Virus record (IMG/VR): IMGVR_UViG_3300046812_000287 | Location: 7,870 to 71,869 of that record | Length of the DNA stretch: 64,000 bases | Source: a virus | Strand: one strand, 5' to 3' | In this document: piece by piece, positions 3,349-21,143 of the stretch | How positions within the stretch are numbered: position 1 is the stretch's first letter | Layout: every line of letters starts with the position of its first letter | Translations under genes and position numbers: made by a program | Notes under the pieces: generated by a model | The model's database searches: none | What the model saw: the letters and a program-made list of their open reading frames with translations, nothing else | Told to the model about the DNA's origin: nothing

Positions 3349-4221
3349 ATGACGACCATGGCAACTGCCCTGAAGAAGAAGCCCAAGCAGGAGGTTGCGC
3401 GCCGCGCGGCCTCTACCCTGGCAACCCAAGAGGGGTTACCAGCCCACCTGCGCTCCTACGAGTCGACCGGCGCGGGCGTCCCGTCCGACGCGAAGGACTT
3501 CCTGCTGCCGATGGCGAAGGTCCTGGACGCCAAGTCCCCGGAGTGCGAGAAGCGCGGACCGAACTATGTACCCGGCGCCGAGGCCGGCGACATCTTGCTG
3601 AAGAACGCCCCGAACCCCTTGATCAAGGGCGACCAGGGCTTCCTGTTTCAACCCTGCTACCGCGAGGCCGCGGTGATCGAGTGGCTCCCGCGCACCAAGG
3701 GCGGCGGCGGCGGAGGCGGGTTCGTCGCGCGCCACCCGGAGGACTATCTAGAGACCTCCAACGACAAGGTCCAGCGCCCGCACCCGGAGAACCCGGCCAA
3801 GATGGTGTGGTACCGGAAGTCGACCGGAAATTTGTTGGTTGAAACTCGATATGTCGGCGGGTACATGGTCGGTGAGGACGGCGACGAGCCTCTTCCGCTC
3901 GTTCTTCCCTTCTCCTCCACCGGCCACACCGTCGCGAAGCAGTGGAACATGCTCATCGCCTCGAAGCGCGTCAACGGTGCCAAGGCCGACATATGGCTGG
4001 TCTACTACCGGGTCGCCACGCGCCTCAAGGCTCGACAGGACCAGTCGTGGTACCTGTTCGACGTCGCCGACGCCGGCCCGGAGAGGAACGGCCTGCCGAC
4101 CACGATGTGGGTCCCCACGGCGGAGGACGCCGAGCGCGGACGCAACCTCCACGAGAGCCTCGCCTCCGGCGCCCGCCAGTTCGCCCAGGATGAGGGTCCC
4201 GCCGACAACGAAAAGATGTAG
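3349..4221 (+). CDS. Putative single-stranded DNA-binding/annealing protein
   Basis: LPxxKVLxxxSPE...GAEAGD...YxxxxIEWxPR...GGFV pattern, acidic C-terminal tail, position in the replication operon; start may be 3358. Confidence 0.55.
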   Translation: MTTMATALKKKPKQEVARRAASTLATQEGLPAHLRSYESTGAGVPSDAKDFLLPMAKVLDAKSPECEKRGPNYVPGAEAGDILLKNAPNPLIKGDQGFLFQPCYREAAVIEWLPRTKGGGGGGGFVARHPEDYLETSNDKVQRPHPENPAKMVWYRKSTGNLLVETRYVGGYMVGEDGDEPLPLVLPFSSTGHTVAKQWNMLIASKRVNGAKADIWLVYYRVATRLKARQDQSWYLFDVADAGPERNGLPTTMWVPTAEDAERGRNLHESLASGARQFAQDEGPADNEKM

Positions 4222-4881: not shown

Positions 4882-5093
4882 TGATCGACGACCTCAACGA
4901 GCGCGGCCTGCGCGAGATGCTGGCCGCCGTGGTCGAGTGCAAGGTCCCGCTGCGCGTCCGCCGCGACGCGCTGGAGGCGGAGGCCGACCTCGCCGCGAGC
5001 GCGGCCAACTCGCTCGCGAAGGTCTCGGGACTTTTGTCCGTCATGGAGGACGACTTGCGCGCCCGCCTTCTAAAATTGGAGGAAGAAAAATGA
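4878..5093 (+). CDS. Hypothetical protein
   Basis: Overlapping stop/start coupling to both neighbours. Confidence 0.55.
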   Translation: MMIDDLNERGLREMLAAVVECKVPLRVRRDALEAEADLAASAANSLAKVSGLLSVMEDDLRARLLKLEEEK

Positions 5094-5992
5094 CCACGAT
5101 CATCGGAGCCGGCCTCGCGGGCCTCCTCGCCGGCAACATGCTGCGCCATCGTTCACCACTCATCGTTGAACGGCAGAGCGCTCTTCCTAACAATCATTCA
5201 GCGGTGCTGCGCTTCCGCTCGCCCATAGTCGGAGACACGCTCAATATTCCGTTCCGTAAGGTGACAATGATCAAGACGCATCTGCCTTGGAAGAACCCGG
5301 TGGCGGACGCGCTCGCCTATTCCTTTAAGAACGGGAGCCAGTATCGTTCCGACCGCTCTATTATTTCCGGCACCACGACCGCCGACCGTTGGATCGCGCC
5401 GCCCGACCTGATCTCTAGGATGGCGGAGCGCCTAGATATTAAGTATGGCACCCCATTCCTATTCAATAACAAGAGCAGTCATCCTATCATCTCCACGCTT
5501 CCAATGCCGACGTTGATGACGCTGTTGAAGTATCCGAAACAGCCAGAGTTCAACTATGTCACCGGCGTGAACGTCAAGGCGACCATTGCGGATTGTGATG
5601 CTTATATTTCCTTACTGGTGCCGAACCCCGACTTGCCAATCTCGCGCATCTCGATCACGGGCAATGAATTGATAGTCGAATTGCCAGGCAAGATTACCTT
5701 TGCGGGCTTAGCTGTTAGCATGGCCGCTGACCTTATTGGCATTCCTCCTAAATCATGTAGCGACATCAGGACCTATCCCCAACACTACGCTAAGATTATG
5801 CCCATTAGCGACGAGGAGCGGCACGCCTTCATGTTTTGGGCCACGGACAAATTCAACATCTTCTCGCTGGGGCGTTTCGCGACGTGGCGTCCTGGTCTAC
5901 TGATGGACGACTTGGTCAATGATCTCCGGCGCATCGACCATTGGATCACGGCCGGTAGCTACGCTATAGCTCGACACAGGAGTGGAAAATGA
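5090..5992 (+). CDS. FAD-dependent oxidoreductase, UDP-galactopyranose mutase-like
   Basis: N-terminal IIGAGLAGL dinucleotide-binding motif; ISTLPM; C-terminal SLGRFATWR...MDD resembling the UGM GRxxxYxYxxMD motif; RBS GGAGG and ATG at 5090. Confidence 0.65.
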   Translation: MTTIIGAGLAGLLAGNMLRHRSPLIVERQSALPNNHSAVLRFRSPIVGDTLNIPFRKVTMIKTHLPWKNPVADALAYSFKNGSQYRSDRSIISGTTTADRWIAPPDLISRMAERLDIKYGTPFLFNNKSSHPIISTLPMPTLMTLLKYPKQPEFNYVTGVNVKATIADCDAYISLLVPNPDLPISRISITGNELIVELPGKITFAGLAVSMAADLIGIPPKSCSDIRTYPQHYAKIMPISDEERHAFMFWATDKFNIFSLGRFATWRPGLLMDDLVNDLRRIDHWITAGSYAIARHRSGK

Positions 5993-6738
5993 AAGTGACT
6001 TTGATAGACTACACTGGCGCCGGCAACCCCGATCCCTTGTACGCCGCGCGCCTCCTTGTTTACACGAAGAACACTCGCCTTACCCAGGGCGAAGACACCC
6101 GGAAGAAAGTGCAGGAGATGAACATAGACCAACTCCAAAAGGAGTTGTCCTACGTCGCGAACACCATTCGCTCCTCCTGGGAGTTCGTTGACTTCACCTT
6201 TGAGATCACCGGAGTCACCCGCGCCTTCACCCACCAGCTAGTCCGCACCCGCACCGCCTCTTACGCTCAGCAGGCTCAGCGGGTCGTGGATATGAGTGAT
6301 TTTGAAGCGCTTCTCCCTGTGACCGTTGTCAACAAAGACAAGGTCGATGCATGGGAGGCATGTATGCGCGTCATCCGTGACGTTTATCAGAACCTCACCG
6401 ATGCCGGCGTTCCCGCCCAGGACGCGCGCGGCGTACTTCCCACCAATGTCCTTACGAACATCATCGTGAAAATGAACCTGCGCACCCTGGCTGATCTACT
6501 GGGGAAGCGCAAGAGCTTACGGGCTCAGGGCGAGTATGCCGACGTCGCCCGTGAGTGGGAGCGGCAGGCCGTCGCCGTCTTCCCCTGGACCCAGCCGTTC
6601 CTCGACCCGGAGCGGACGCGGACGCCAGCCCTGGACGCCATCCTGAAGGAGGCCCTGGGCTCCGCCGCGCCTATCGACGCTCCGCGCGTTAACGCCGCGC
6701 TCAAGGAACTCGACACTTTGAAAGGAACCTGGGGATGA
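5989..6738 (+). CDS. thyX: ThyX (flavin-dependent thymidylate synthase) family protein with divergent active site
   Basis: FTFEITGVTRAFTHQLVRTRTASYAQQAQR, GVPAQDARGVLP, MNLRTL and RAQGE match the ThyX fold, but RHR is RTR and the motif Ser is Ala. Confidence 0.85.
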   Translation: MKVTLIDYTGAGNPDPLYAARLLVYTKNTRLTQGEDTRKKVQEMNIDQLQKELSYVANTIRSSWEFVDFTFEITGVTRAFTHQLVRTRTASYAQQAQRVVDMSDFEALLPVTVVNKDKVDAWEACMRVIRDVYQNLTDAGVPAQDARGVLPTNVLTNIIVKMNLRTLADLLGKRKSLRAQGEYADVAREWERQAVAVFPWTQPFLDPERTRTPALDAILKEALGSAAPIDAPRVNAALKELDTLKGTWG

Positions 6739-7175
6739 AAGCCCCGCGCGCCGTCCTGGTCGACATCGATCATACGCTTTCCGACGCCTTTTGGCGCGAT
6801 GAACTTATCGGCACATGGGATGCCTATCACGAAGCCAGCAGCGGAGACTTGCCGCTGTTGCCTGTGATAGGACTCATCAACTCGCTACACCTTTGTCGCT
6901 ACACCATCGTCGGCATTACCGCTCGACCGGAGAAGTGGCGCCAGCTAACGCTTAATTGGTTGGTGCGCTGGGGCGCCCACGTTCACGAATTATTGATGCG
7001 ACCGGATGATGCTTTCCATCCGTCGCCGGAGATAAAGCTGGAGTTGGCCCGGAAGCGCTTTCCTGACTTCAACGACATCGCTTTCCTGCTAGAGGACCGC
7101 GATGACGTTTGTGCGGCCTTCCGCGAGGCAGGCGTCACCGTTCTTCAAGTCTTCTCCAAGAGGAGTGGAATATGA
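6735..7175 (+). CDS. HAD-family phosphatase (T4 PseT/PNKP phosphatase-like)
   Basis: Motif I VDIDHTL, motif II ITARPE, LLMRP, motif IV LEDRDDV. Confidence 0.85.
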   Translation: MKAPRAVLVDIDHTLSDAFWRDELIGTWDAYHEASSGDLPLLPVIGLINSLHLCRYTIVGITARPEKWRQLTLNWLVRWGAHVHELLMRPDDAFHPSPEIKLELARKRFPDFNDIAFLLEDRDDVCAAFREAGVTVLQVFSKRSGI

Positions 7176-7852
7176 TCACGGTTATCACTGGCGGCTCCTC
7201 CGGTCTCGGTTTGGCAATAATGCCCCATCTGGAGCGGCTCCCTGACTCTACCGTTATCGATTGGTCGTTGGCGTCGGGTGTTGATGTTCGAAGCCCCTTA
7301 TCAGTTAGGCTGGCAGCACGTAAATTTTATAAAATAGATTGCTTGATTAACTGCGCGGGCGTTAACCATATCGAATTCATCCCGACCCTGAAGGAAGAAG
7401 ATTGGGACCGAGTCATGGACACGAATGCGAAAGGCATCTATCTGGCCTCCCAGGCGCTCCTCCCCTACCTCAAGGACGGAACCATCCTGAACATCGTCTC
7501 GAATGCCAGTCATATGCCGATGACTTCTTCGCTGGCCTACAATGCCTCTAAAGGCGCGGCGGAGATCATGACGCGTCAGATGTCACGTGAGCTGATCAAG
7601 ACCCACGGCATCACCGTCTTCGGCATCAGCCCGAATAAGCTTAAGGGCACCGGCATGTCTGACTACATTGATAAGAAGGTTTGCGAACTTCGCGGCTGGA
7701 CGCCAGAGGAGGCGCGGAATTATCAACTTGCCTCCTTGCCCGCCGGGGAGGAGACTAGCCCGGATACCTTAGCGGAGTTCGTCGCCTTCCTTCTCTCCAC
7801 TAAGGAGCGCCACCGGTATCTCGCCGGAACCATCATCCCTTACGGACTATAG
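7172..7852 (+). CDS. Short-chain dehydrogenase/reductase (classical SDR)
   Basis: TGGSSGLG, INCAG, catalytic YNASK; ATG at 7172 with RBS AGGAG. Confidence 0.9.
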   Translation: MITVITGGSSGLGLAIMPHLERLPDSTVIDWSLASGVDVRSPLSVRLAARKFYKIDCLINCAGVNHIEFIPTLKEEDWDRVMDTNAKGIYLASQALLPYLKDGTILNIVSNASHMPMTSSLAYNASKGAAEIMTRQMSRELIKTHGITVFGISPNKLKGTGMSDYIDKKVCELRGWTPEEARNYQLASLPAGEETSPDTLAEFVAFLLSTKERHRYLAGTIIPYGL

Positions 7853-7860
7853 GAGTGGAC

Positions 7861-8346
7861 ATGCCCGAGTTAGATCAAGTCGCTTTCTATTGCTCCAACC
7901 TAGAGCAATCTAACAAGCTGAAGGCCCAGTTCGGGCTCTTAAATGAGCCTTGGATAATCGATACTGTCACAGGCCAATCCGTCGTGGCAGGTAGCACTCA
8001 GAAAGTAGAGAATGTCGCGGAACTCCAGTTCAATTATTCTCTCGGAATTGAACTGGAAATCTTGCGCTACATCTCCGGACCTCACTGGCATGAGCGCGTT
8101 AATCCGCTCTTCAATTCAAATTATGCCTTCGCCAGCCATATAGGTCATCACCTGAAGCCAGATGAACTGTTCCCTGATATGTTAGGCGCCCCGCTAGTCC
8201 AGGAGACCTTTACCCAGTCCCACACTAGCAGTTTCCTGACGGACCCGGACTCCCCGGGCTACGGCCGGAAGTACCATTACCGCATACATGAGCTAAGTCC
8301 AGGGACTTATCTTAAGTTCATCAAGCGTATCGAGCCGGCGAAATGA
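7861..8346 (+). CDS. VOC/glyoxalase-superfamily protein (epimerase/isomerase-like)
   Basis: LDQVAF...IELEILRY...SHIGHH pattern of the paired beta-alpha-beta-beta-beta VOC fold. Confidence 0.55.
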   Translation: MPELDQVAFYCSNLEQSNKLKAQFGLLNEPWIIDTVTGQSVVAGSTQKVENVAELQFNYSLGIELEILRYISGPHWHERVNPLFNSNYAFASHIGHHLKPDELFPDMLGAPLVQETFTQSHTSSFLTDPDSPGYGRKYHYRIHELSPGTYLKFIKRIEPAK

Positions 8347-8702
8347 AAACAGCCGCCGAGTTCCTGCGCGACGGCGCCGCGACCTTCGAGGGCCGCAACA
8401 AGGTCTATGGCAACAACTTTCTTAAAATCGGCCACGTAATGGCCGGTTTATTCCCGGCCGGAGTAGAGCTAAAGTCGGTGCAGGACTGGAACCGGATGCA
8501 CATCCTGCTCCTCCAGATCGTAAAGCTGTCGCGTTATTGCAACAACTGGGAGACTGGTCATGCTGACTCGATCCACGACAACACTGTGTACAGCGCTATC
8601 CTTGAATCCATCGATGCCATGGGACCAGGACCCGACGCCGCTCCGCCACCAGCATCGCATCTACGGCGACAACAGAGAAAGCGTGTTCGCGCTCATCGAT
8701 GA
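8343..8702 (+). CDS. DUF6378-like protein (putative all-alpha nucleotide pyrophosphatase)
   Basis: RNKVYG...KLSR...HADSIHDxxVY pattern. Confidence 0.7.
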   Translation: MKTAAEFLRDGAATFEGRNKVYGNNFLKIGHVMAGLFPAGVELKSVQDWNRMHILLLQIVKLSRYCNNWETGHADSIHDNTVYSAILESIDAMGPGPDAAPPPASHLRRQQRKRVRAHR

Positions 8703-8982
8703 AGAGGATTATCACTGGGCCGTGCAATGGTCCTGGGGGCCGAAGCTATCGCGCGGCGGCAGCAAAATTTACCTTTACCGTCATTCACGCGGCGTGAGCT
8801 ACTATCTCCACAAGGAGATCATGAAGCGCAATGAGCCTGAACCGCCATCCCCGGAGCATACGATAGCCGACCACCGCAACGGACAATCGCTCGACTGCCG
8901 CCGCGCCAACCTGCGCTGGGCGACGCCCAGCCAGAACAGCCTCAACATCAACGGGCGCTATGCCTACAACTTTTTGGTGTAA
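8560..8982 (+). CDS. HNH endonuclease (HNH_3 type)
   Basis: ALIDEED...YLHKEIM...DHRNGQSLDCRRANLRWATPSQN; true start uncertain (overlaps upstream gene). Confidence 0.8.
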   Translation: MLTRSTTTLCTALSLNPSMPWDQDPTPLRHQHRIYGDNRESVFALIDEEDYHWAVQWSWGPKLSRGGSKIYLYRHSRGVSYYLHKEIMKRNEPEPPSPEHTIADHRNGQSLDCRRANLRWATPSQNSLNINGRYAYNFLV

Positions 8983-9163
8983 GATGCCTTACAACTACAA
9001 GCCTACCTATGAGCAACTTCTGGTTCATGCCGAGCACCACGACATAAAGCGGATGTTGATGGACATGTTCAAGAAAGACGGGGCCCACACGCTTCACGAC
9101 GCAGTCAAGCGCCAGCGGCCACATAGGCTCGCACGAAAAATAGCGGAGATGTTAGCCAAATGA
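8960..9163 (+). CDS. Hypothetical protein
   Basis: Fills the gap in the operon; start probably about 8984. Confidence 0.45.
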   Translation: MPTTFWCKMPYNYKPTYEQLLVHAEHHDIKRMLMDMFKKDGAHTLHDAVKRQRPHRLARKIAEMLAK

Positions 9164-9281
9164 CACTCCCTTTCGGCCTAAGCTGGCGAGCCTTCGCCCG
9201 GAGCTTCGTGGCGATGCACCCGTTCGCCGCCGGCTTCGTCTCCGGCGCAACATGCCTCCTGCTGCTCATAGGGATTCACCG

Positions 9282-9839
9282 ATGATAGCACTCGTGTTCG
9301 ACACCGAGACCACCGGCCTAACGAAGAATAGGACCGTCAAATTGGACCTCCAGCCGGAGATCATTGAGTTCACCGGCCTACTGGTCGACCTGAAAACAGG
9401 GAAGGCCAAGAAAACTCTTGACCTTCTAGTAAAACCCAGCAAGCCGCTCTCCGATACTCCGGCTTTCGGGGAGAAGAAGACCATCACCGATATCACCGGC
9501 ATCACCAACGCGATGCTTATGGACGCGCAATATATGGATCAGCAATTTGACTCCATCGTCAAGTTGATTGAATCAAGCCCCGTCGTCATCGCTCACAACG
9601 CCAGCTTCGACAAGGAGATGATTGATATCGAGGCCCAGCGCTTGGGCCGCGTAGTAAAGTGGCCGCGAGTGATTTGCACGGTCGAGCAGACCCTGCACCT
9701 TAAGGGCCACCGCCTGACGATGACGAAGCTTTACCAGGAGCTGTTTGGGGAAGCTTTCGCGGGCGCTCACCGCTCGCGGGCGGACGTCGAGGCGCTGGTG
9801 CGTATCTGCGTGGAGCTATTCAAGAGGGGGATCATTTGA
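9282..9839 (+). CDS. DEDDh 3'-5' exonuclease (Pol III epsilon-like)
   Basis: Exo I FDTETTG, Exo II AHNASFD, Exo III AHRSRADV. Confidence 0.9.
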   Translation: MIALVFDTETTGLTKNRTVKLDLQPEIIEFTGLLVDLKTGKAKKTLDLLVKPSKPLSDTPAFGEKKTITDITGITNAMLMDAQYMDQQFDSIVKLIESSPVVIAHNASFDKEMIDIEAQRLGRVVKWPRVICTVEQTLHLKGHRLTMTKLYQELFGEAFAGAHRSRADVEALVRICVELFKRGII

Positions 9840-12703
9840 GAATAAGAACCGGCTTCTCATTCAAAGTCGCCGTGGGCCATCTCCCCGACGTCATCTCCCG
9901 GATGCAGGAGTTGAAATGGAAGGTCGCGCCCATCAGCGACACTAACTCGACCTTTGGCTTCACGAAGTTCACCAAGCTGGCAAAGTCCGCTCAACTCCGT
10001 CCTATCTATGGGGTTGAGCTCAACGTAGCCACCAATGTGGGCCACCGCCATTCGGTCTCCGACCGCTGGACATTCTTCGCTAAGTCTTCGCTCCGACCAT
10101 TGCACGACCTAATCGGCCTCGCCACCCTTAACGGCGATAAGGAGCCGGCGCTAACCTACAAGCAGGCCTTAGCCGCGAAGGACCTAATCAAGATCAGCGG
10201 CGAACGGGTGCAAATAGAAGAAATGGGGAAACCAATGAAGGACTTCTTCATTGGTCTTTCCCCATCTCTCCCCAAAGGTCTCGCCTCCGCCGCCGCGAAG
10301 CGCGGCTTTAAGTTCTTGGCCGTCAGCGACAACGTCTATCCGCGCCGGGAGGATGAAGAGTTCTATCGCATCACCCTAGGTCGCCGCGCATCGACCCAGA
10401 CTTACCCGCAATGGATACTTTCGGACGCCGAATGGCGCGAGGCGTGTAAATATATCGCGGACAAGCCCACGCTCGCCGCCGCCTTGCGTAATCGCGACGC
10501 GGCGATGGCTCAGTGCAAGGCGACCATGAAGAAGGCCACGCTGCTAAAGCCGAAGAAGCCCAAGACCTTGCGCGCCATGTGCGTGGACGGAGCTAAGAGA
10601 ACAGGAGTTGATCTTTCAACTCCTGTTTATAAGGAACGTCTAGATCGCGAGCTAGCGCTGATCGAGGAAAAGAAGTTTGAGGACTATTTCTATGTCATCG
10701 CGGATATGGTCAACTGGGCGAAGGAGCGGATGATAGTGGGTCCTGCGCGCGGCTCCTCTTGCGGGTCTCTGGTCTGCTATCTGCTAAACATCACGACCAT
10801 CGACCCTATTCCTTACGGGTTGATCTTTGAACGGTTTATCGACACCACCCGCACCGACTTGCCTGACATCGACATCGACTTTTCCGATCAGCGCAGGCAG
10901 ATGGTGTTCGACTATGCCGAGAAGAAATATGGCGCCGATCACGTCGCCCGACTAGGAACGGTCGGAATGTTTAAGCCGCGCTCCGCTCTTAACGCAGTCG
11001 GCATGGCGCTCCAAATCCCAAGGTGGCAGGTCGAGAAGGTACTAGACGGCGTTATCGAGCGGAGTAGCGGCGACGCTCGCGCCATGTTGGCCCTAGAAGA
11101 CACCATCAATGAAACGGACGCCGGCCGGAAGATGCTGGCCGAGTTCCCGGAGGTTAAGATAGCCGGCCGGCTAGAGGGCCACCCGAACAACGCCAGCCAA
11201 CACGCGGCCGGTATCGTCATCACTGAAGAGCCCGTGGTGGAGTATGTCGCCGTCAATAAGCGAACCCGCTCCGCGATGGTCGATAAGAAGGACGCTGAGG
11301 AGCTCAACCTGCTGAAGATCGACGCGCTGGGACTTACGCAGCTGTCTATCTTCGAGCGCGCCTTGCAGTTTGTCGGGAAGCCCGACAAGTCCGGCTATTT
11401 GGAGACCTTGCCGCTAGACGATCCTGCCGCCTTTGAAGTGCTCAACAAGGGCCACTTCGCCGGCATCTTCCAATTTACCGGCGCCGCTCTCCAATCCCTT
11501 GCGAAGCAGGTAAAGATAGACAAGCTGGAGGATATGGTAGCCATCACCGCGCTCGCGCGCCCCGGTCCCCTCGCGACGGGCGGAGCTAACTCCTGGGTGA
11601 AGCGGCGCAATGGAGCGGAGGAGGTCTCCACCGTTCACCCGATGTTGACCGAGCTAACGAAGGACACCCAGGGCATCGTCATCTATCAGGAAACGGTGAT
11701 GAACATCGTCCGCGAAATGGGAAAGTTTTCTTGGGAAGACACCAGCGCTATCCGTAAGGCTATGTCAGGCCGGCTGGGAGATGAATTCTTTGAGCGCTAC
11801 CGCGTCAACTTTCTTAAGGGCGCCGCGACCCACGGTATTGACGAAGACACCGCGGATCAAGTATGGCGTCACATCAACACGATGGGCTCTTGGGCCTTTA
11901 ATAGGAGCCACGCCGTCGCCTACGGCATCGTTTCCTATTATTGTTGTTGGCTGAAGGCACACCACCCGATGGAGTTCGCGGCAGCGACGCTAGATGCGGA
12001 AGCCGACCCTACCAAGCAACTCACCTTGCTGCGTGAGCTAAAGAGCGAGGGCATCGACTACATCGCCTTCGACCTGGAGCACTCTACGGAGCGCTGGGCC
12101 ATTAACGGAGACAAGCAATTGGTTGGCCCACTCACATCTATAAAGGGCATCGGCCCAGCAGCTGTGATGGAGATATTAGACGCTCGCGCCTTGGGCAACC
12201 CTTTGCGCGAGGCACTAGCGAAGCGCCTCGCCACCGCTAAGACCAGTCTGGACACTCTCTATCCGATACGCGATAGGGTGAAGGTGCTATACCCCGACCT
12301 CTCAACAATCATTGAGTCCTCCGAGCCTCTTTCAGTAATCGACGTGCAGTGCGGGAACTTTGGACGATGGCAAAATGTCATCATCCTCGCGGTCGTCAAA
12401 AGGATAGCGCCGAGAGATGAGAATGATTCGGCCAATGTTCAAAAGCGCGAACAAGCCGGACGAAGGGGCCGGCTTAGCGGTCCGACGCAAGCGCTTAACT
12501 TATTCTTTCAGGATGACTCCGACGAAATATTCTGTAAGGTCGACCGCTTCCGGTTCGAGGAGCTGGGCCGCGCGGTGATAGAGCGCGGTCGCCCCGGCAA
12601 GTCGCTCTATGCCGTTCGAGGAACGGTGCCACCGGACTTCCGCATGATTTCCATAAATAGCATCAAGTATCTGGGCGACTTAGAGGATGAGCAACAAACA
12701 TGA
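9836..12703 (+). CDS. dnaE: DNA polymerase III alpha subunit (family C), degenerate PHP domain
   Basis: PIYGVE, GPARGSS, FERFI, catalytic DLPDIDIDF, QHAAG, LLKIDALGL, RPGP, FNRSHAVAY. Confidence 0.95.
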   Translation: MRIRTGFSFKVAVGHLPDVISRMQELKWKVAPISDTNSTFGFTKFTKLAKSAQLRPIYGVELNVATNVGHRHSVSDRWTFFAKSSLRPLHDLIGLATLNGDKEPALTYKQALAAKDLIKISGERVQIEEMGKPMKDFFIGLSPSLPKGLASAAAKRGFKFLAVSDNVYPRREDEEFYRITLGRRASTQTYPQWILSDAEWREACKYIADKPTLAAALRNRDAAMAQCKATMKKATLLKPKKPKTLRAMCVDGAKRTGVDLSTPVYKERLDRELALIEEKKFEDYFYVIADMVNWAKERMIVGPARGSSCGSLVCYLLNITTIDPIPYGLIFERFIDTTRTDLPDIDIDFSDQRRQMVFDYAEKKYGADHVARLGTVGMFKPRSALNAVGMALQIPRWQVEKVLDGVIERSSGDARAMLALEDTINETDAGRKMLAEFPEVKIAGRLEGHPNNASQHAAGIVITEEPVVEYVAVNKRTRSAMVDKKDAEELNLLKIDALGLTQLSIFERALQFVGKPDKSGYLETLPLDDPAAFEVLNKGHFAGIFQFTGAALQSLAKQVKIDKLEDMVAITALARPGPLATGGANSWVKRRNGAEEVSTVHPMLTELTKDTQGIVIYQETVMNIVREMGKFSWEDTSAIRKAMSGRLGDEFFERYRVNFLKGAATHGIDEDTADQVWRHINTMGSWAFNRSHAVAYGIVSYYCCWLKAHHPMEFAAATLDAEADPTKQLTLLRELKSEGIDYIAFDLEHSTERWAINGDKQLVGPLTSIKGIGPAAVMEILDARALGNPLREALAKRLATAKTSLDTLYPIRDRVKVLYPDLSTIIESSEPLSVIDVQCGNFGRWQNVIILAVVKRIAPRDENDSANVQKREQAGRRGRLSGPTQALNLFFQDDSDEIFCKVDRFRFEELGRAVIERGRPGKSLYAVRGTVPPDFRMISINSIKYLGDLEDEQQT

Positions 12704-19966: not shown

Positions 19967-20388
19967 TCACCACCAATCGGCGCGGTCAAGACGACCAAGG
20001 TGAACTTCTGGAGGTGAAAATGATCCGAGCTATAGCCAAGGACTACGAGGACCGCCTGCGTGCCGACGCCGCTGAGGGCTTGTCGTACACCCAGACCGCC
20101 GCGCGCCACGACCTCAGAAGGATGCAGGTGGCGGGGATGGCCAAGCGCCTAGGCATCAGGTTCAGCGGTGCCCGCGCCAGCGCCCCGAGGCCTCCAAGCC
20201 CTTCGCGAGTGAAGAAGCCGCCGGTGCCGGCGGCGCAGTGCCTCGTCAGGCCTGACGTTCCGATACGAACAGTGGCGGTTAGGAATGACCGCAGCGGGCG
20301 CCCCGTGAGCTGCTGCTGGTCGGGGTGCGTCAAGCCGCCCGTGGCGGTCGGCAAGCCCTACTGCGACGAGCACTGGAGGCTGAGATGA
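19963..20388 (+). CDS. gcrA: GcrA-like transcriptional regulator
   Basis: N-terminal EGLSYTQTA...VAGMAKRLGI HTH and C-terminal CCW...C...GKPYCDEH, the GcrA two-domain signature. Confidence 0.65.
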   Translation: MITTNRRGQDDQGELLEVKMIRAIAKDYEDRLRADAAEGLSYTQTAARHDLRRMQVAGMAKRLGIRFSGARASAPRPPSPSRVKKPPVPAAQCLVRPDVPIRTVAVRNDRSGRPVSCCWSGCVKPPVAVGKPYCDEHWRLR

Positions 20389-21143
20389 GAGCGCTGCTAG
20401 TCGCCGCCCTGCTCGCGCCGCAGCTCGCGACCGCCGCCGACCTGTCGGTGCCGCCGTCGGTGCTAGACCTGCCGAAGCACTACGACTGCCCGCTGGCGCA
20501 GGACGACGACGCGGTCCTGGCCGCGCTCCTCGATCTGGCGTTCCCCGACGTCATCCACCCGGAGGACGAGGACATCAACTGGGACGTCGTCAGGTGGCTT
20601 GAGTCGCGCATATTCTGCGTCAAGCCGGACCTGCTGGTGATAGCAGATGATGAGGAAGGGAGCTTCGGAGGCGGGAGCTTCGGAGGTGGCGGAGGCGGGA
20701 GCTTCGGAGGCGGGAGCTTCGGAGGCGGGAGCTTCGGAGGCGGGAGCTTCGGAGGCGGGAGCTTCGGAGGCGGGAGCTTCGGAGGCGGGAGCTTCGGAGG
20801 CGGGAGCTTCGGCGGAGGCGGAGGCGGAGGCGGAGGCGGAGGCGGAGGCGGAGGAAATATGACCCCAACTAACCCGCCGCATGTTACCCCTCACATGCCG
20901 ACGCCGCCGGCCACCCCGCTGCCCGGGTCAATATGGTTGTTTGCCTCTGGGCTGTTGCTTCTTGCCTTGACAAAGGTAGCGCGCCGCGTCCCGTCTCGTC
21001 CACCGGGAGGGGTTGATGTCGAGTTGGGGTCGCGGCGCGCGCCTAGCGATCGACGGGAGGAAACACGTCGACCGATAGCTAGTGCCCCTGGAGTGCCTTC
21101 AGCTGGGAGGACAGCTCCAGGACCTGGTTGTCGATGCTCTTGA
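20385..21143 (+). CDS. Secreted glycine-rich protein with VPLPA/PEP-CTERM-like sorting signal
   Basis: Signal peptide MRALLVAALLAPQLATAA; GGGSF repeats; TPLPGSIWLFASGLLLLALTKVARR. Confidence 0.65.
   Translation: MRALLVAALLAPQLATAADLSVPPSVLDLPKHYDCPLAQDDDAVLAALLDLAFPDVIHPEDEDINWDVVRWLESRIFCVKPDLLVIADDEEGSFGGGSFGGGGGGSFGGGSFGGGSFGGGSFGGGSFGGGSFGGGSFGGGSFGGGGGGGGGGGGGGGNMTPTNPPHVTPHMPTPPATPLPGSIWLFASGLLLLALTKVARRVPSRPPGGVDVELGSRRAPSDRREETRRPIASAPGVPSAGRTAPGPGCRCS
20658..20855 (+). repeat. In-frame tandem repeat: 15-bp GGGAGCTTCGGAGGC units (about 10) then GGCGGA units
   Basis: Directly visible; encodes (GGGSF)n followed by poly-Gly. Confidence 0.95.
20979..21040. terminator. GC-rich hairpin at the convergence of the two transcriptional arms
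   Basis: GCGCGCCGCGTCCC / GGGTCGCGGCGCGC inverted repeat (1 mismatch); no clear U-tract. Confidence 0.3.

Follow-up and report, generated by a model that had tools for sequence, protein, structure and literature searches.

The open reading frame (ORF) at 5989–6738 of the window analyzed here encodes a full-length protein of the Thy1/ThyX fold and belongs to a virus-restricted branch of that family in which the paired residues His53 and Tyr91 of Thermotoga maritima ThyX, a flavin-dependent thymidylate synthase (FDTS), are lost. The window is the whole 64,000-nucleotide (nt) stretch examined, corresponding to positions 7870–71869 of the 71.9-kb IMG/VR virus record IMGVR_UViG_3300046812_000287, which CheckV rates as complete; its G+C content is 62%. 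The ThyX-like gene comes second in a compact run of six genes (5087–8702), the others encoding a flavoprotein, a HAD phosphatase, a short-chain dehydrogenase/reductase (SDR), a conserved 163-aa protein, and a DUF6378 protein. ThyX is an antibiotic target, and papers on its mechanism treat Tyr91, Ser88, and His53 as conserved catalytic residues. The existence of a branch of hundreds of phage sequence clusters without the His53/Tyr91 pair means either that the accepted mechanism has a natural alternative or that the fold has a second activity. Members are annotated everywhere as "thymidylate synthase," including those of the Wifcevirus coliphages and of the Pbunavirus phages used widely in Pseudomonas phage therapy. 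The reading we tentatively favor, and to which we give just short of an even chance, is that branch members act on C5 of dUMP in a flavin-dependent reaction, most probably as hydroxymethylases feeding thymidine hypermodification.

Active-site replacements in a virus-restricted ThyX branch

An earlier note on this DNA had proposed alignment to PF02511 and structure prediction as checks on the protein, and both identified the ThyX fold. The ORF matched Pfam Thy1 (PF02511) at 127 bits (cut-off 24.8; E = 1e-36) across the entire model (positions 1–191 of 191), so a chance match is no concern. It also scored above the cut-off of TIGR02170, the NCBI thyX equivalog (106.7 vs 87.9 bits), and matched PHROG 85 ("thymidylate synthase"). 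The AlphaFold2 (AF2) model, built on 64 relatives, had a mean predicted local distance difference test (pLDDT) score of 96. All listed Foldseek matches in the PDB were ThyX/FDTS entries, mostly from Mycobacterium tuberculosis and T. maritima, with a probability of 1.00; template modeling (TM) scores were 0.61–0.66 when normalized on the query and 0.73–0.76 when normalized on the T. maritima chains (ThyX-FAD-dUMP structures). Canonical ThyX is a homotetramer in which each active site is made from three subunits. Among PDB matches to the subfamily profile, M. tuberculosis ThyX gave E ~1e-23, T. maritima ThyX ~1e-16, and PolB (4p5a) 2.9e-11. No other ORF of the window's genome matches Thy1, a search of that genome for the ThyA family (PF00303) gave no match, and megablast of window positions 5000–9000 against 50,697 phage records found nothing.

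Residues of T. maritima ThyX are given in what we take to be the native numbering, which agrees with the reference construct (3n0b/1kq4) at an offset of 12 (chain numbering = native + 12). The same numbering agrees with the residue names in PMC11940539 and PMC8316439. Profile alignment to T. maritima ThyX placed MKHGHETPFEH opposite I-a-k-T-i-p-S-S-W-E-F and RHRIASYNELSGRY opposite RtRtasyAqqslrv; in the HMMER alignment to M. tuberculosis ThyX (3gwc, 2af6), the motif region of the ORF reads THQLVRTRTASYAQQAQRVV. The motif is RTR-x7-A-x-R-V in the ORF and RHR-x7-S-x-R-Y in both T. maritima and M. tuberculosis ThyX, so the RHR-x7-S signature, the wording of which reportedly comes from the 2002 description of the family, is replaced by RTR-x7-A. 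The changes from T. maritima to the ORF are His53→Ile60, Phe57→Trp64, His59→Phe66, His79→Thr87, Asn85→Ala93, Glu86→Gln94, Ser88→Ala96, Tyr91→Val99, and His178→Arg178. Kept are Glu58 (Glu65 in the ORF), Gln75, Arg78, Arg80, Ser83, Arg90, Arg147, Asn163, Arg165, Arg174, and Glu182, with Arg78/80/90/147/165/174 corresponding to Arg86/88/98/147/165/174 of the ORF, and the motifs ARGVLP (residues 146–151), NLR (163–165), and AQGE (179–182). These alignments bear out what the earlier note had read by eye: two altered segments within 6150–6290, Thr, Ala, and Val at the positions of His79, Ser88, and Tyr91, no His at that of His53, and retention of the FAD/dUMP arginines and of the ARxVLP, NxR, and AQxE motifs.

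No variation occurs at Arg86, Arg88, Arg147, Arg165, or Arg174 among 64 subfamily members; conservation of Arg98 is 90% or higher, and Gln83 and Glu182 are nearly invariant. Invariance of the arginines and the similarity of the model to the ThyX-FAD-dUMP structures suggest that the flavin and nucleotide site is kept, as had been supposed. Thr29-Arg30, in the "folate loop" region, is also invariant and is new to the branch; Trp64, Phe66, Ala93, and Arg178 are strongly conserved branch-specific residues.

In T. maritima ThyX, Tyr91 and Ser88 are described as "strictly conserved" and lie at hydrogen-bond distance from the flavin-carbinolamine hydroxyl; the S88A, R90A, and Y91A variants consume the carbinolamine more slowly, Y91A by more than 100-fold (PMC8316439). 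Mutation of Tyr91 lowers the rate of flavin oxidation 1000-fold; Tyr91 and Asn85 hold His53, which stacks on the pteridine of folate when the enzyme is oxidized and on the reduced isoalloxazine/FADH− (PMC11940539). The ORF has Ile60 in place of His53 (folate and reduced-flavin stacking) and Val99 in place of Tyr91 (general acid and gate). Because the catalytic residues of the T. maritima enzyme are replaced across the whole branch, the usual ThyX mechanism cannot run unchanged; judged from its sequences, the branch must have compensated or work otherwise. Asn85 was considered as a partner in a lost His53-Asn85-Tyr91 triad and was dropped: ThyX from Thermoplasmatota is canonical at His53, RHR, Ser88, and Tyr91, yet reads ASYAQQSQRY, with Ala at the Asn85 position, so Asn85 is no conserved partner of the pair and Asn85→Ala is not diagnostic of the branch.

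The extent of the branch was assessed by a HMMER search of 1.84 billion cluster representatives, in which 3831 proteins reached E ≤ 1e-3 and 101 reached E ≤ 1e-30; residues were counted in an alignment of the best 150. The His53 position (n = 143) holds I in 111, V in 11, H in 10, L in 9, and N in 2, and the Tyr91 position (n = 147) holds V in 62, T in 25, I in 15, A in 12, Y in 10, L in 7, F in 6, S in 4, M in 4, H in 1, and C in 1. At the His79 position (n = 145), T is found in 88, H in 33, S in 10, N in 7, Q in 4, A in 2, and Y in 1; at that of Ser88 (n = 146), S is found in 84, T in 33, A in 28, and P in 1. Loss of His53 goes with loss of Tyr91: of the 144 representatives that align at both positions, neither residue is present in 132, both are in 8, and 4 are mixed. 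What sets the branch apart in these alignments is the absence of the His53/Tyr91 pair, accompanied by His59→Phe, His178→Arg, the conserved Trp64, and the invariant Thr29-Arg30. Ser88→Ala and His79→Thr vary inside the branch and do not define it; most representatives do not share the Ala96 of the window, and His79→Thr, though frequent, is not fixed. The earlier description of the ThyX signature as systematically replaced is apt for the protein, but the replacement is a family trait, not special to this gene, and two of the four changes are not fixed in the family.

The same division appears in a FastTree tree of 135 rows, comprising the query, 107 representatives of 200–300 aa (those outside this range were left out), six named phages, and 21 canonical control loci, the controls being every third of 72 usable canonical loci. 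One branch with SH-like support of 99 splits 105 atypical from 30 canonical rows and has the ORF on the atypical side; the tree is unrooted and shows the split, not the direction of change. The branch occurs in at least 568 confirmed IMG/VR stretches, and overall identity inside it is 30–60%. Among 16 representatives of at least 310 aa, no fusion to the flavoprotein, HAD, SDR, or DUF6378 was found. P0083 (637 aa) and P0090 (428 aa) each have a large insertion after residue ~75–80 that divides the ThyX sequence in two and looks like an intein or an inserted endonuclease domain. The PB1-like sub-branch (Bas98, LBL3, XcP1, and F8) is more divergent, with SPFEF or SPFDF for SSWEF and GAYQQETSR for ASYAQQAQR, and its ThyX-like proteins are extended at the C terminus by a segment in which cysteines are conserved (C-x5-C-AFPR ... 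C); in the control alignment, a C-terminal C-x5-C-x-E-x-K-x-S-C pattern is also seen in canonical phage ThyX.

Cellular genomes were scanned at one genome per species (185,579 species) with patterns built from 14 branch sequences, which would miss the PB1-like sub-branch; 579 relatives were found and the best 80 were kept. Four of these 80 loci represent the branch. The flavoprotein is present in all four, and HAD, DUF6378, exonuclease, and phage polymerase genes are also present in three; all four are phage-like contigs in metagenome-assembled genomes. The other 76 are canonical, with His at the His53 position and RHR in all and Tyr (73), His (2), or Phe (1) at the Tyr91 position. No cell using the branch form as its own thymidylate synthase was found among the best 80 of the 579 relatives from 185,579 species, although confinement to virulent phages would explain this absence equally well.

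Linked genes and modified DNA in related phages

Gene neighborhoods were compared, with 6-kb flanks, between 82 branch loci (80 IMG/VR contigs and two isolates) and a control set of 80 IMG/VR loci with canonical ThyX. Homologues of the flavoprotein were found in 79 of the 82 branch loci, of the DUF6378 protein in 73, of the exonuclease in 68, of the HAD protein in 65, of the polymerase in 56, of the SDR in 32, and of the 163-aa protein in 22, each of these last with an SDR match as well. At the canonical loci, the polymerase was found once and each of the other genes in 0 of 80. The flavoprotein gene lies within 6 kb of the ThyX-like gene in 77 of the 80 IMG/VR branch loci, and in two of the three misses the ThyX gene stands at the end of its contig. 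Among phage isolate records, 353 have the flavoprotein vs 662 matched by the ThyX query; the respective numbers are 291 vs 292 for Pseudomonas and 27 vs 27 for Escherichia, and phages of Gordonia, Mycobacterium, Microbacterium, Streptomyces, Halorubrum, and Bacillus are in the top-ten tally for ThyX and not in that for the flavoprotein.

The window shares its gene order with Pbunavirus LBL3, F8, and 14-1, Wifcevirus Bas98, and Carpasinavirus XcP1, in which HAD and DUF6378 are fused into one protein annotated as "polynucleotide kinase/phosphorylase"; the exonuclease/polymerase order is also the same in these three genera. Rhizobium phage TM30 (207 kb) is a more distant case of the linkage, with the flavoprotein gene 2.4 kb upstream and HAD-DUF6378 2 kb downstream of the ThyX-like gene, the trio lying within ~7 kb and adjoined by dUTPase and RNR genes. 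Cronobacter phage Ss1 and Vibrio phage PVA7 are further isolates with the module, and the ThyX-like protein of Bas98 is gp51. At the TM30 locus (1581–2540), the flavoprotein homologue is annotated as "polysaccharide deacetylase," and HAD-DUF6378 is annotated as "phosphoheptose isomerase"; both names look like annotation carry-over without support from our searches.

Modified DNA has been reported in phages that carry the module. Pbunavirus F8 and 14-1 have the ThyX-like, flavoprotein, and HAD-DUF6378 genes, and a 2025 preprint describes hypermodified thymidine in their DNA, at about a quarter of T and in an inferred TG context, with nucleoside masses of 362 U in F8 and 390 U in 14-1 (PMC12191111). 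According to the same source, F8 DNA resists five enzymes with TG in their sites and is cut by five without TG, and the family is said to be without previously implicated hypermodification genes. Nanopore sequencing of native Pbunavirus DNA fails, and amplification is needed to obtain reads (bioRxiv 10.64898/2026.07.08.737226). The module is also carried by Wifcevirus, recently reported with unexplained restriction-modification (RM) resistance. Literature searches on Pbunavirus hypermodification found no paper naming biosynthetic genes, and a ThyA-family gene (PF00303) was found in none of LBL3, Bas98, XcP1, and TM30 (0 of 4). Because the modification or restriction resistance was reported without known genes, the genes of the ThyX-like module become candidates, and the ThyX-like gene with its fixed neighbors offers concrete, clonable ones.

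The reported masses are matched by 5-hydroxymethyldeoxyuridine (5-hmdU, 258) plus a tetritol (122) minus 18, giving 362, and by 5-hmdU plus a pentose (150) minus 18, giving 390. They are equally matched by sums that start from deoxyuridine (228), namely addition of a pentose (150) plus 2 minus 18 for 362 and of a hexose (180) minus 18 for 390. An O-linked ether or glycoside of 5-hmdU and a C-linked polyol are isomers. When 18-kb stretches of F8 and 14-1 were compared, most replication-block proteins were 94–99% identical. Lower values were found for HAD-DUF6378 (80.8%; 354 vs 338 aa), for four small ORFs that surround the ThyX gene (58, 60, 61, and 63; 78–83%), and for ORF70 (57.1%; 398 vs 434 aa), which lies upstream of the primase. 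These genes are candidates for setting the difference between 362 and 390 U; a Pfam scan of the divergent ORF70 and other F8 and 14-1 ORFs returned nothing useful.

Possible chemistry and its alternatives

From here we infer a substrate, a product, and roles for the neighboring genes. Given the ThyX fold and the retained FAD/dUMP arginines, the ThyX-like enzyme most likely forms a flavin-N5 one-carbon adduct and passes the carbon to C5 of dUMP. His53 and Tyr91 speed carbinolamine consumption and flavin reoxidation in T. maritima, so the end of the reaction would be altered where the pair is lost (and, in the window, Ser88 as well). Instead of dTMP, the 5-methylene-dUMP intermediate would give another C5-substituted dUMP on release, 5-hydroxymethyl-dUMP formed by addition of water being the likeliest. 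Such a hydroxymethylation would be redox-neutral, with the reduced flavin serving solely as a covalent catalyst. In UDP-galactopyranose mutase (UGM), N5 of the reduced flavin is a covalent, redox-neutral catalyst acting on a uridine nucleotide sugar; acid quenching of ThyX is reported to trap 5-hydroxymethyl-dUMP. The product would be a pool-level precursor of a thymidine hypermodification that other phage proteins finish, and the prime candidates for the later steps are the flavoprotein of UGM/amine-oxidase fold, the HAD phosphatase, and the DUF6378, SDR, and 163-aa proteins. Phages phiW-14 and SP10 produce 5-hmdUMP with a homologue of thymidylate synthase; once in the DNA, 5-hmdU is converted in situ and sequence-specifically to T or a hypermodified base (PMC5889632); a sequence-specific pattern is therefore compatible with an enzyme that supplies a pool-level precursor.

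A wider proposal, possible though somewhat short of an even chance, is that the operon 5087–8702 is the missing biosynthetic core of the new type of thymidine hypermodification detected by mass spectrometry in Pbunavirus, the ThyX-like enzyme acting as a dUMP 5-hydroxymethylase or as an aldose-C5 coupler. If true, this would be the first ThyX-fold enzyme with a product other than a methylated nucleotide. In the bolder version, an aldose carbon would be coupled to C5 of dUMP through a flavin-N5 iminium, and the UGM-fold flavoprotein, the SDR, and the HAD phosphatase would prepare the sugar or sugar alcohol. The earlier note had gone further in one respect, suggesting that methylene-tetrahydrofolate (methylene-THF) is probably unused. 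Nothing found here shows this: the favored hydroxymethylation would still use methylene-THF, and Trp64 with the invariant Thr29-Arg30 could build another donor site, so loss of methylene-THF use is not supported. The accompanying idea of a different chemistry has gained circumstantial support, from the gene linkage and from the hypermodified thymidine of relatives, and can be put forward conditionally.

Several observations weigh against hydroxymethylation. A literature search found no assay for any member of the branch, the ORF passes the NCBI thyX equivalog cut-off, and many representatives retain Ser at the Ser88 position (84/146) or His at that of His79 (33/145). The lost residues do not specifically predict hydroxymethylation, and formation of the FAD-CH2-dUMP adduct should still need an acid. 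Nearly all branch loci belong to one broad phage group with a DnaE-type replication module and the same gene order; as most of these phages share that module by descent, the loci are not independent and the linkage is confounded. The window's phage is an uncultured metagenomic contig; the DNA chemistry considered here is that of relatives, described in a preprint that gives tentative nucleoside structures and a TG motif derived from ten restriction enzymes (PMC12191111). Tet_JBP searches of the genomes were negative, but their control was silent everywhere, which leaves room for a DNA-level thymine oxidase. A Walker A scan of the window in six frames, made with no dedicated hidden Markov model (HMM), identified only the helicase ORF and its antisense frame and no P-loop kinase of the 5-HMUDK type. 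The flavoprotein, for its part, has only a Rossmann start in common with the PaMx11 gp47 lyase.

The main rival to the hydroxymethylase reading is an ordinary flavin-dependent thymidylate synthase (dUMP + CH2-THF + NADPH → dTMP) with a rebuilt donor/reductant site, a serious alternative that we put somewhat below an even chance and only slightly behind the favored reading. Trp64 and Phe66 would stand in for the His residues, with Thr29-Arg30 in the folate loop; the flavoprotein would be a dedicated reductase or an inherited neighbor from the replication module, and the hypermodification of relatives would be made by other genes on thymine in DNA. The Pfam Thy1 and TIGR02170 cut-offs that the ORF passes agree with such an enzyme, as do the retention of every dUMP/FAD arginine and, in those 84 of 146 representatives, of Ser88, and the strong conservation of Trp64, Phe66, Ala93, and Arg178, which a compensated active site would show. 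This is also the sole thymidylate-synthase-like gene in the window's phage, TM30 has dUTPase and RNR genes nearby, the synteny is common to the phage group by descent, and the TG-specific pattern of Pbunavirus requires a DNA-level step anyway. Substitutions of Tyr91, however, cost 100- to 1000-fold in T. maritima, and Tyr is absent from 137 of the 147 representatives. Nor was the branch found as a cellular housekeeping gene, its four loci among the best 80 of 579 all being phage-like, and canonical phage ThyX with flavoprotein, HAD, or DUF6378 neighbors numbers 0 of 80. Finally, the module-bearing relatives with modified thymidine or unexplained RM resistance have no other known route to 5-hmdU.

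Activity as a C5 methylase or alkylase of another nucleotide (dCMP, UMP, or CMP) is improbable. The parallel would be PolB, a ThyX paralogue of polyoxin biosynthesis that methylates UMP as well as dUMP and thus documents that paralogues with altered substrate range exist (PMC5954106). PolB (4p5a) does match the subfamily profile (E = 2.9e-11), and the loop after Arg98, where ThyX has Tyr91, is changed; but this similarity is weaker than that to M. tuberculosis or T. maritima ThyX, the arginines for the phosphate and for uracil O4/N3 (Arg98, Arg147, and Arg174) and Gln83 are as in dUMP-specific ThyX, and the modification reported in relatives is of thymidine, not cytidine. It is very improbable that the protein is a catalytically dead ThyX relic with a non-enzymatic role in nucleotide or flavin binding, in regulation, or as a decoy. 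It does lack three residues deemed catalytic in T. maritima ThyX, yet its ligand-binding arginines are invariant, a new branch-specific residue set is conserved at 30–60% overall identity, the gene is present in at least 568 confirmed IMG/VR stretches, and it is translationally coupled to genes for other enzymes.

The operon, its surroundings, and known systems

ATGA overlaps join the genes at four of the five junctions in the operon, and a gap of 2 nt separates them at the remaining one; the operon is translationally coupled and is part of the replication module (Table 1).

Table 1. Features of the ThyX-like operon and adjoining replication genes (window positions)
Feature	Position	Strand	Remarks
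Flavoprotein, FAD-binding, compact	5087–5992	+	~301 aa from ATG 5087; alternative GTG start 4937; phrog_4828
ThyX-like protein	5989–6738	+	249 aa; virus-restricted "SSWEF / R-x-R...AQQ" subfamily
NTIRSSWEF	6160–6186	+	Residues 58–66; matches T. maritima 51–59 (HGHETPFEH)
HQLVRTRTASYAQQAQRV	6232–6285	+	Residues 82–99; ThyX-motif region
HAD phosphatase, PNKP-phosphatase type	6735–7175	+	146 aa; start overlaps ThyX-like stop (ATGA); phrog_415
SDR, classical, FabG / glucose-ribitol dehydrogenase-like	7172–7852	+	ATG overlaps HAD stop; phrog_3142
163-aa conserved protein	7855–8346	+	Invariant residues His/Glu-rich: E66, E68, H95, H99, H123 (16 homologues aligned)
DUF6378 protein	8343–8702	+	Conserved part ~residues 1–92; start overlaps preceding stop (ATGA)
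DEDDh exonuclease	9252–9839	+	phrog_192
DnaE-type (Pol III alpha) DNA polymerase	9836–12703	+	phrog_405, E = 4e-224

The stop codon of the flavoprotein gene forms an ATGA overlap with the start of the ThyX-like gene. The protein carries a dinucleotide-binding motif, GAGLAGL, at its N terminus and matches PHROG 4828, which has no assigned function (E = 3.6e-47); searches of Pfam and NCBIfam gave no match. Foldseek with its AF2 model (pLDDT 88) listed UGMs first among PDB entries (query-normalized TM 0.53–0.57), followed by PHBH, protoporphyrinogen oxidase, and glycine oxidase, at sequence identities of 9–15% (12–15% to the UGMs), and its structural neighbors in the Atlas carry PF01593 (Amino_oxidase). 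The model assigns the protein to the UGM/amine-oxidase fold class only, from which no function follows; at 301 aa vs 360–390 aa, it lies outside the UGM sequence family and is without the UGM-specific helical domain. A relationship to the flavin lyase PaMx11 gp47 was rejected, as 33 N-terminal columns align (the Rossmann start only) with a probability of 13%. Prediction of a complex between the ThyX-like protein and the flavoprotein, run without controls, scored 0.00, which speaks neither for nor against binding.

The HAD phosphatase matches PF25109 (E = 5.6e-15) and, in the PDB, Pnkp1 (4xrp; E = 5e-5). The SDR matches Pfam adh_short (E = 8e-31) and generic SDRs in the PDB; a role as pteridine or folate reductase was considered and is unsupported, the best PDB and NCBIfam matches being generic FabG, glucose, and ribitol dehydrogenases. 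The 163-aa protein had no match in Pfam, PHROG, or NCBIfam, and the PDB profile search gave a sub-threshold match to PvuII only; from its His/Glu pattern, a glyoxalase/VOC-like fold is a guess. Pfam DUF6378 is weak for the window member (E = 0.005), although 15 of 22 aligned homologues match (best E = 6e-6); the protein aligns to the C-terminal part of phrog_4889, and no function was obtained from the PDB profile search, a Pfam scan of the 22 members, or the Atlas.

Between the DUF6378 and exonuclease genes, an HNH endonuclease ORF (phrog_99; 8560–8982, + strand) shares its first part, in a different frame, with the 3' tail of the DUF6378 ORF, which is not conserved; because a homologue is found there in 0 of 82 related loci, it is probably a homing-endonuclease insertion. 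Upstream of the operon, 3349–4221 (+) encodes a Pam3_Gp34-like protein (PF23977, phrog_2402) with homologues at 27 of the 82 related loci; F8 ORF051 also falls in this Pfam family, members of which are variously annotated as "putative structural protein" or hypothetical. Elsewhere in the window, the translation of 20325–21143 (+) contains many successive GGSFGG-type repeats and then a poly-Gly tract, with no Pfam or PHROG match; the ORF may encode a genuine low-complexity protein or may be open only because it crosses a non-coding repeat. Pfam and PHROG scans of 20 further genome ORFs for other modification genes returned replication or structural genes or nothing.

Set against known systems, the branch resembles canonical ThyX (T. 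maritima TM0449, M. tuberculosis Rv2754c, and PBCV-1 A674R) in its fold, its full HMM match, its FAD/dUMP arginines, and the equivalents of Gln75 and Glu58. It differs in having RTR-x7-A in the window copy, Ile, Phe, Val, and Arg for His53, His59, Tyr91, and His178, and the invariant Thr29-Arg30 and conserved Trp64, as well as in being virus-restricted, accompanied by the flavoprotein, and on the opposite side of a supported tree split. With the ThyA-family dUMP hydroxymethyltransferases of SP10, phiW-14, M6, ViI, and PaMx11, it would share a supply of 5-hmdUMP, and it also shares adjoining replication genes (PMC5889632, PMC8989533); the fold and cofactor logic are unrelated, so that the resemblance is one of proposed function and not of membership. 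PolB (4p5a/4p5b) is likewise a case of the ThyX fold recruited for a non-housekeeping modified pyrimidine nucleotide (PMC5954106), but it is bacterial, belongs to secondary metabolism, and matches the profile less well than ordinary ThyX. The window's flavoprotein, finally, has the FAD Rossmann domain and β-sheet substrate domain of UGM and the amine-oxidase/PHBH flavoproteins, whereas its ~300 aa compare with 360–500 aa in those proteins, to which it is linked by 9–15% identity and no Pfam or NCBIfam match.

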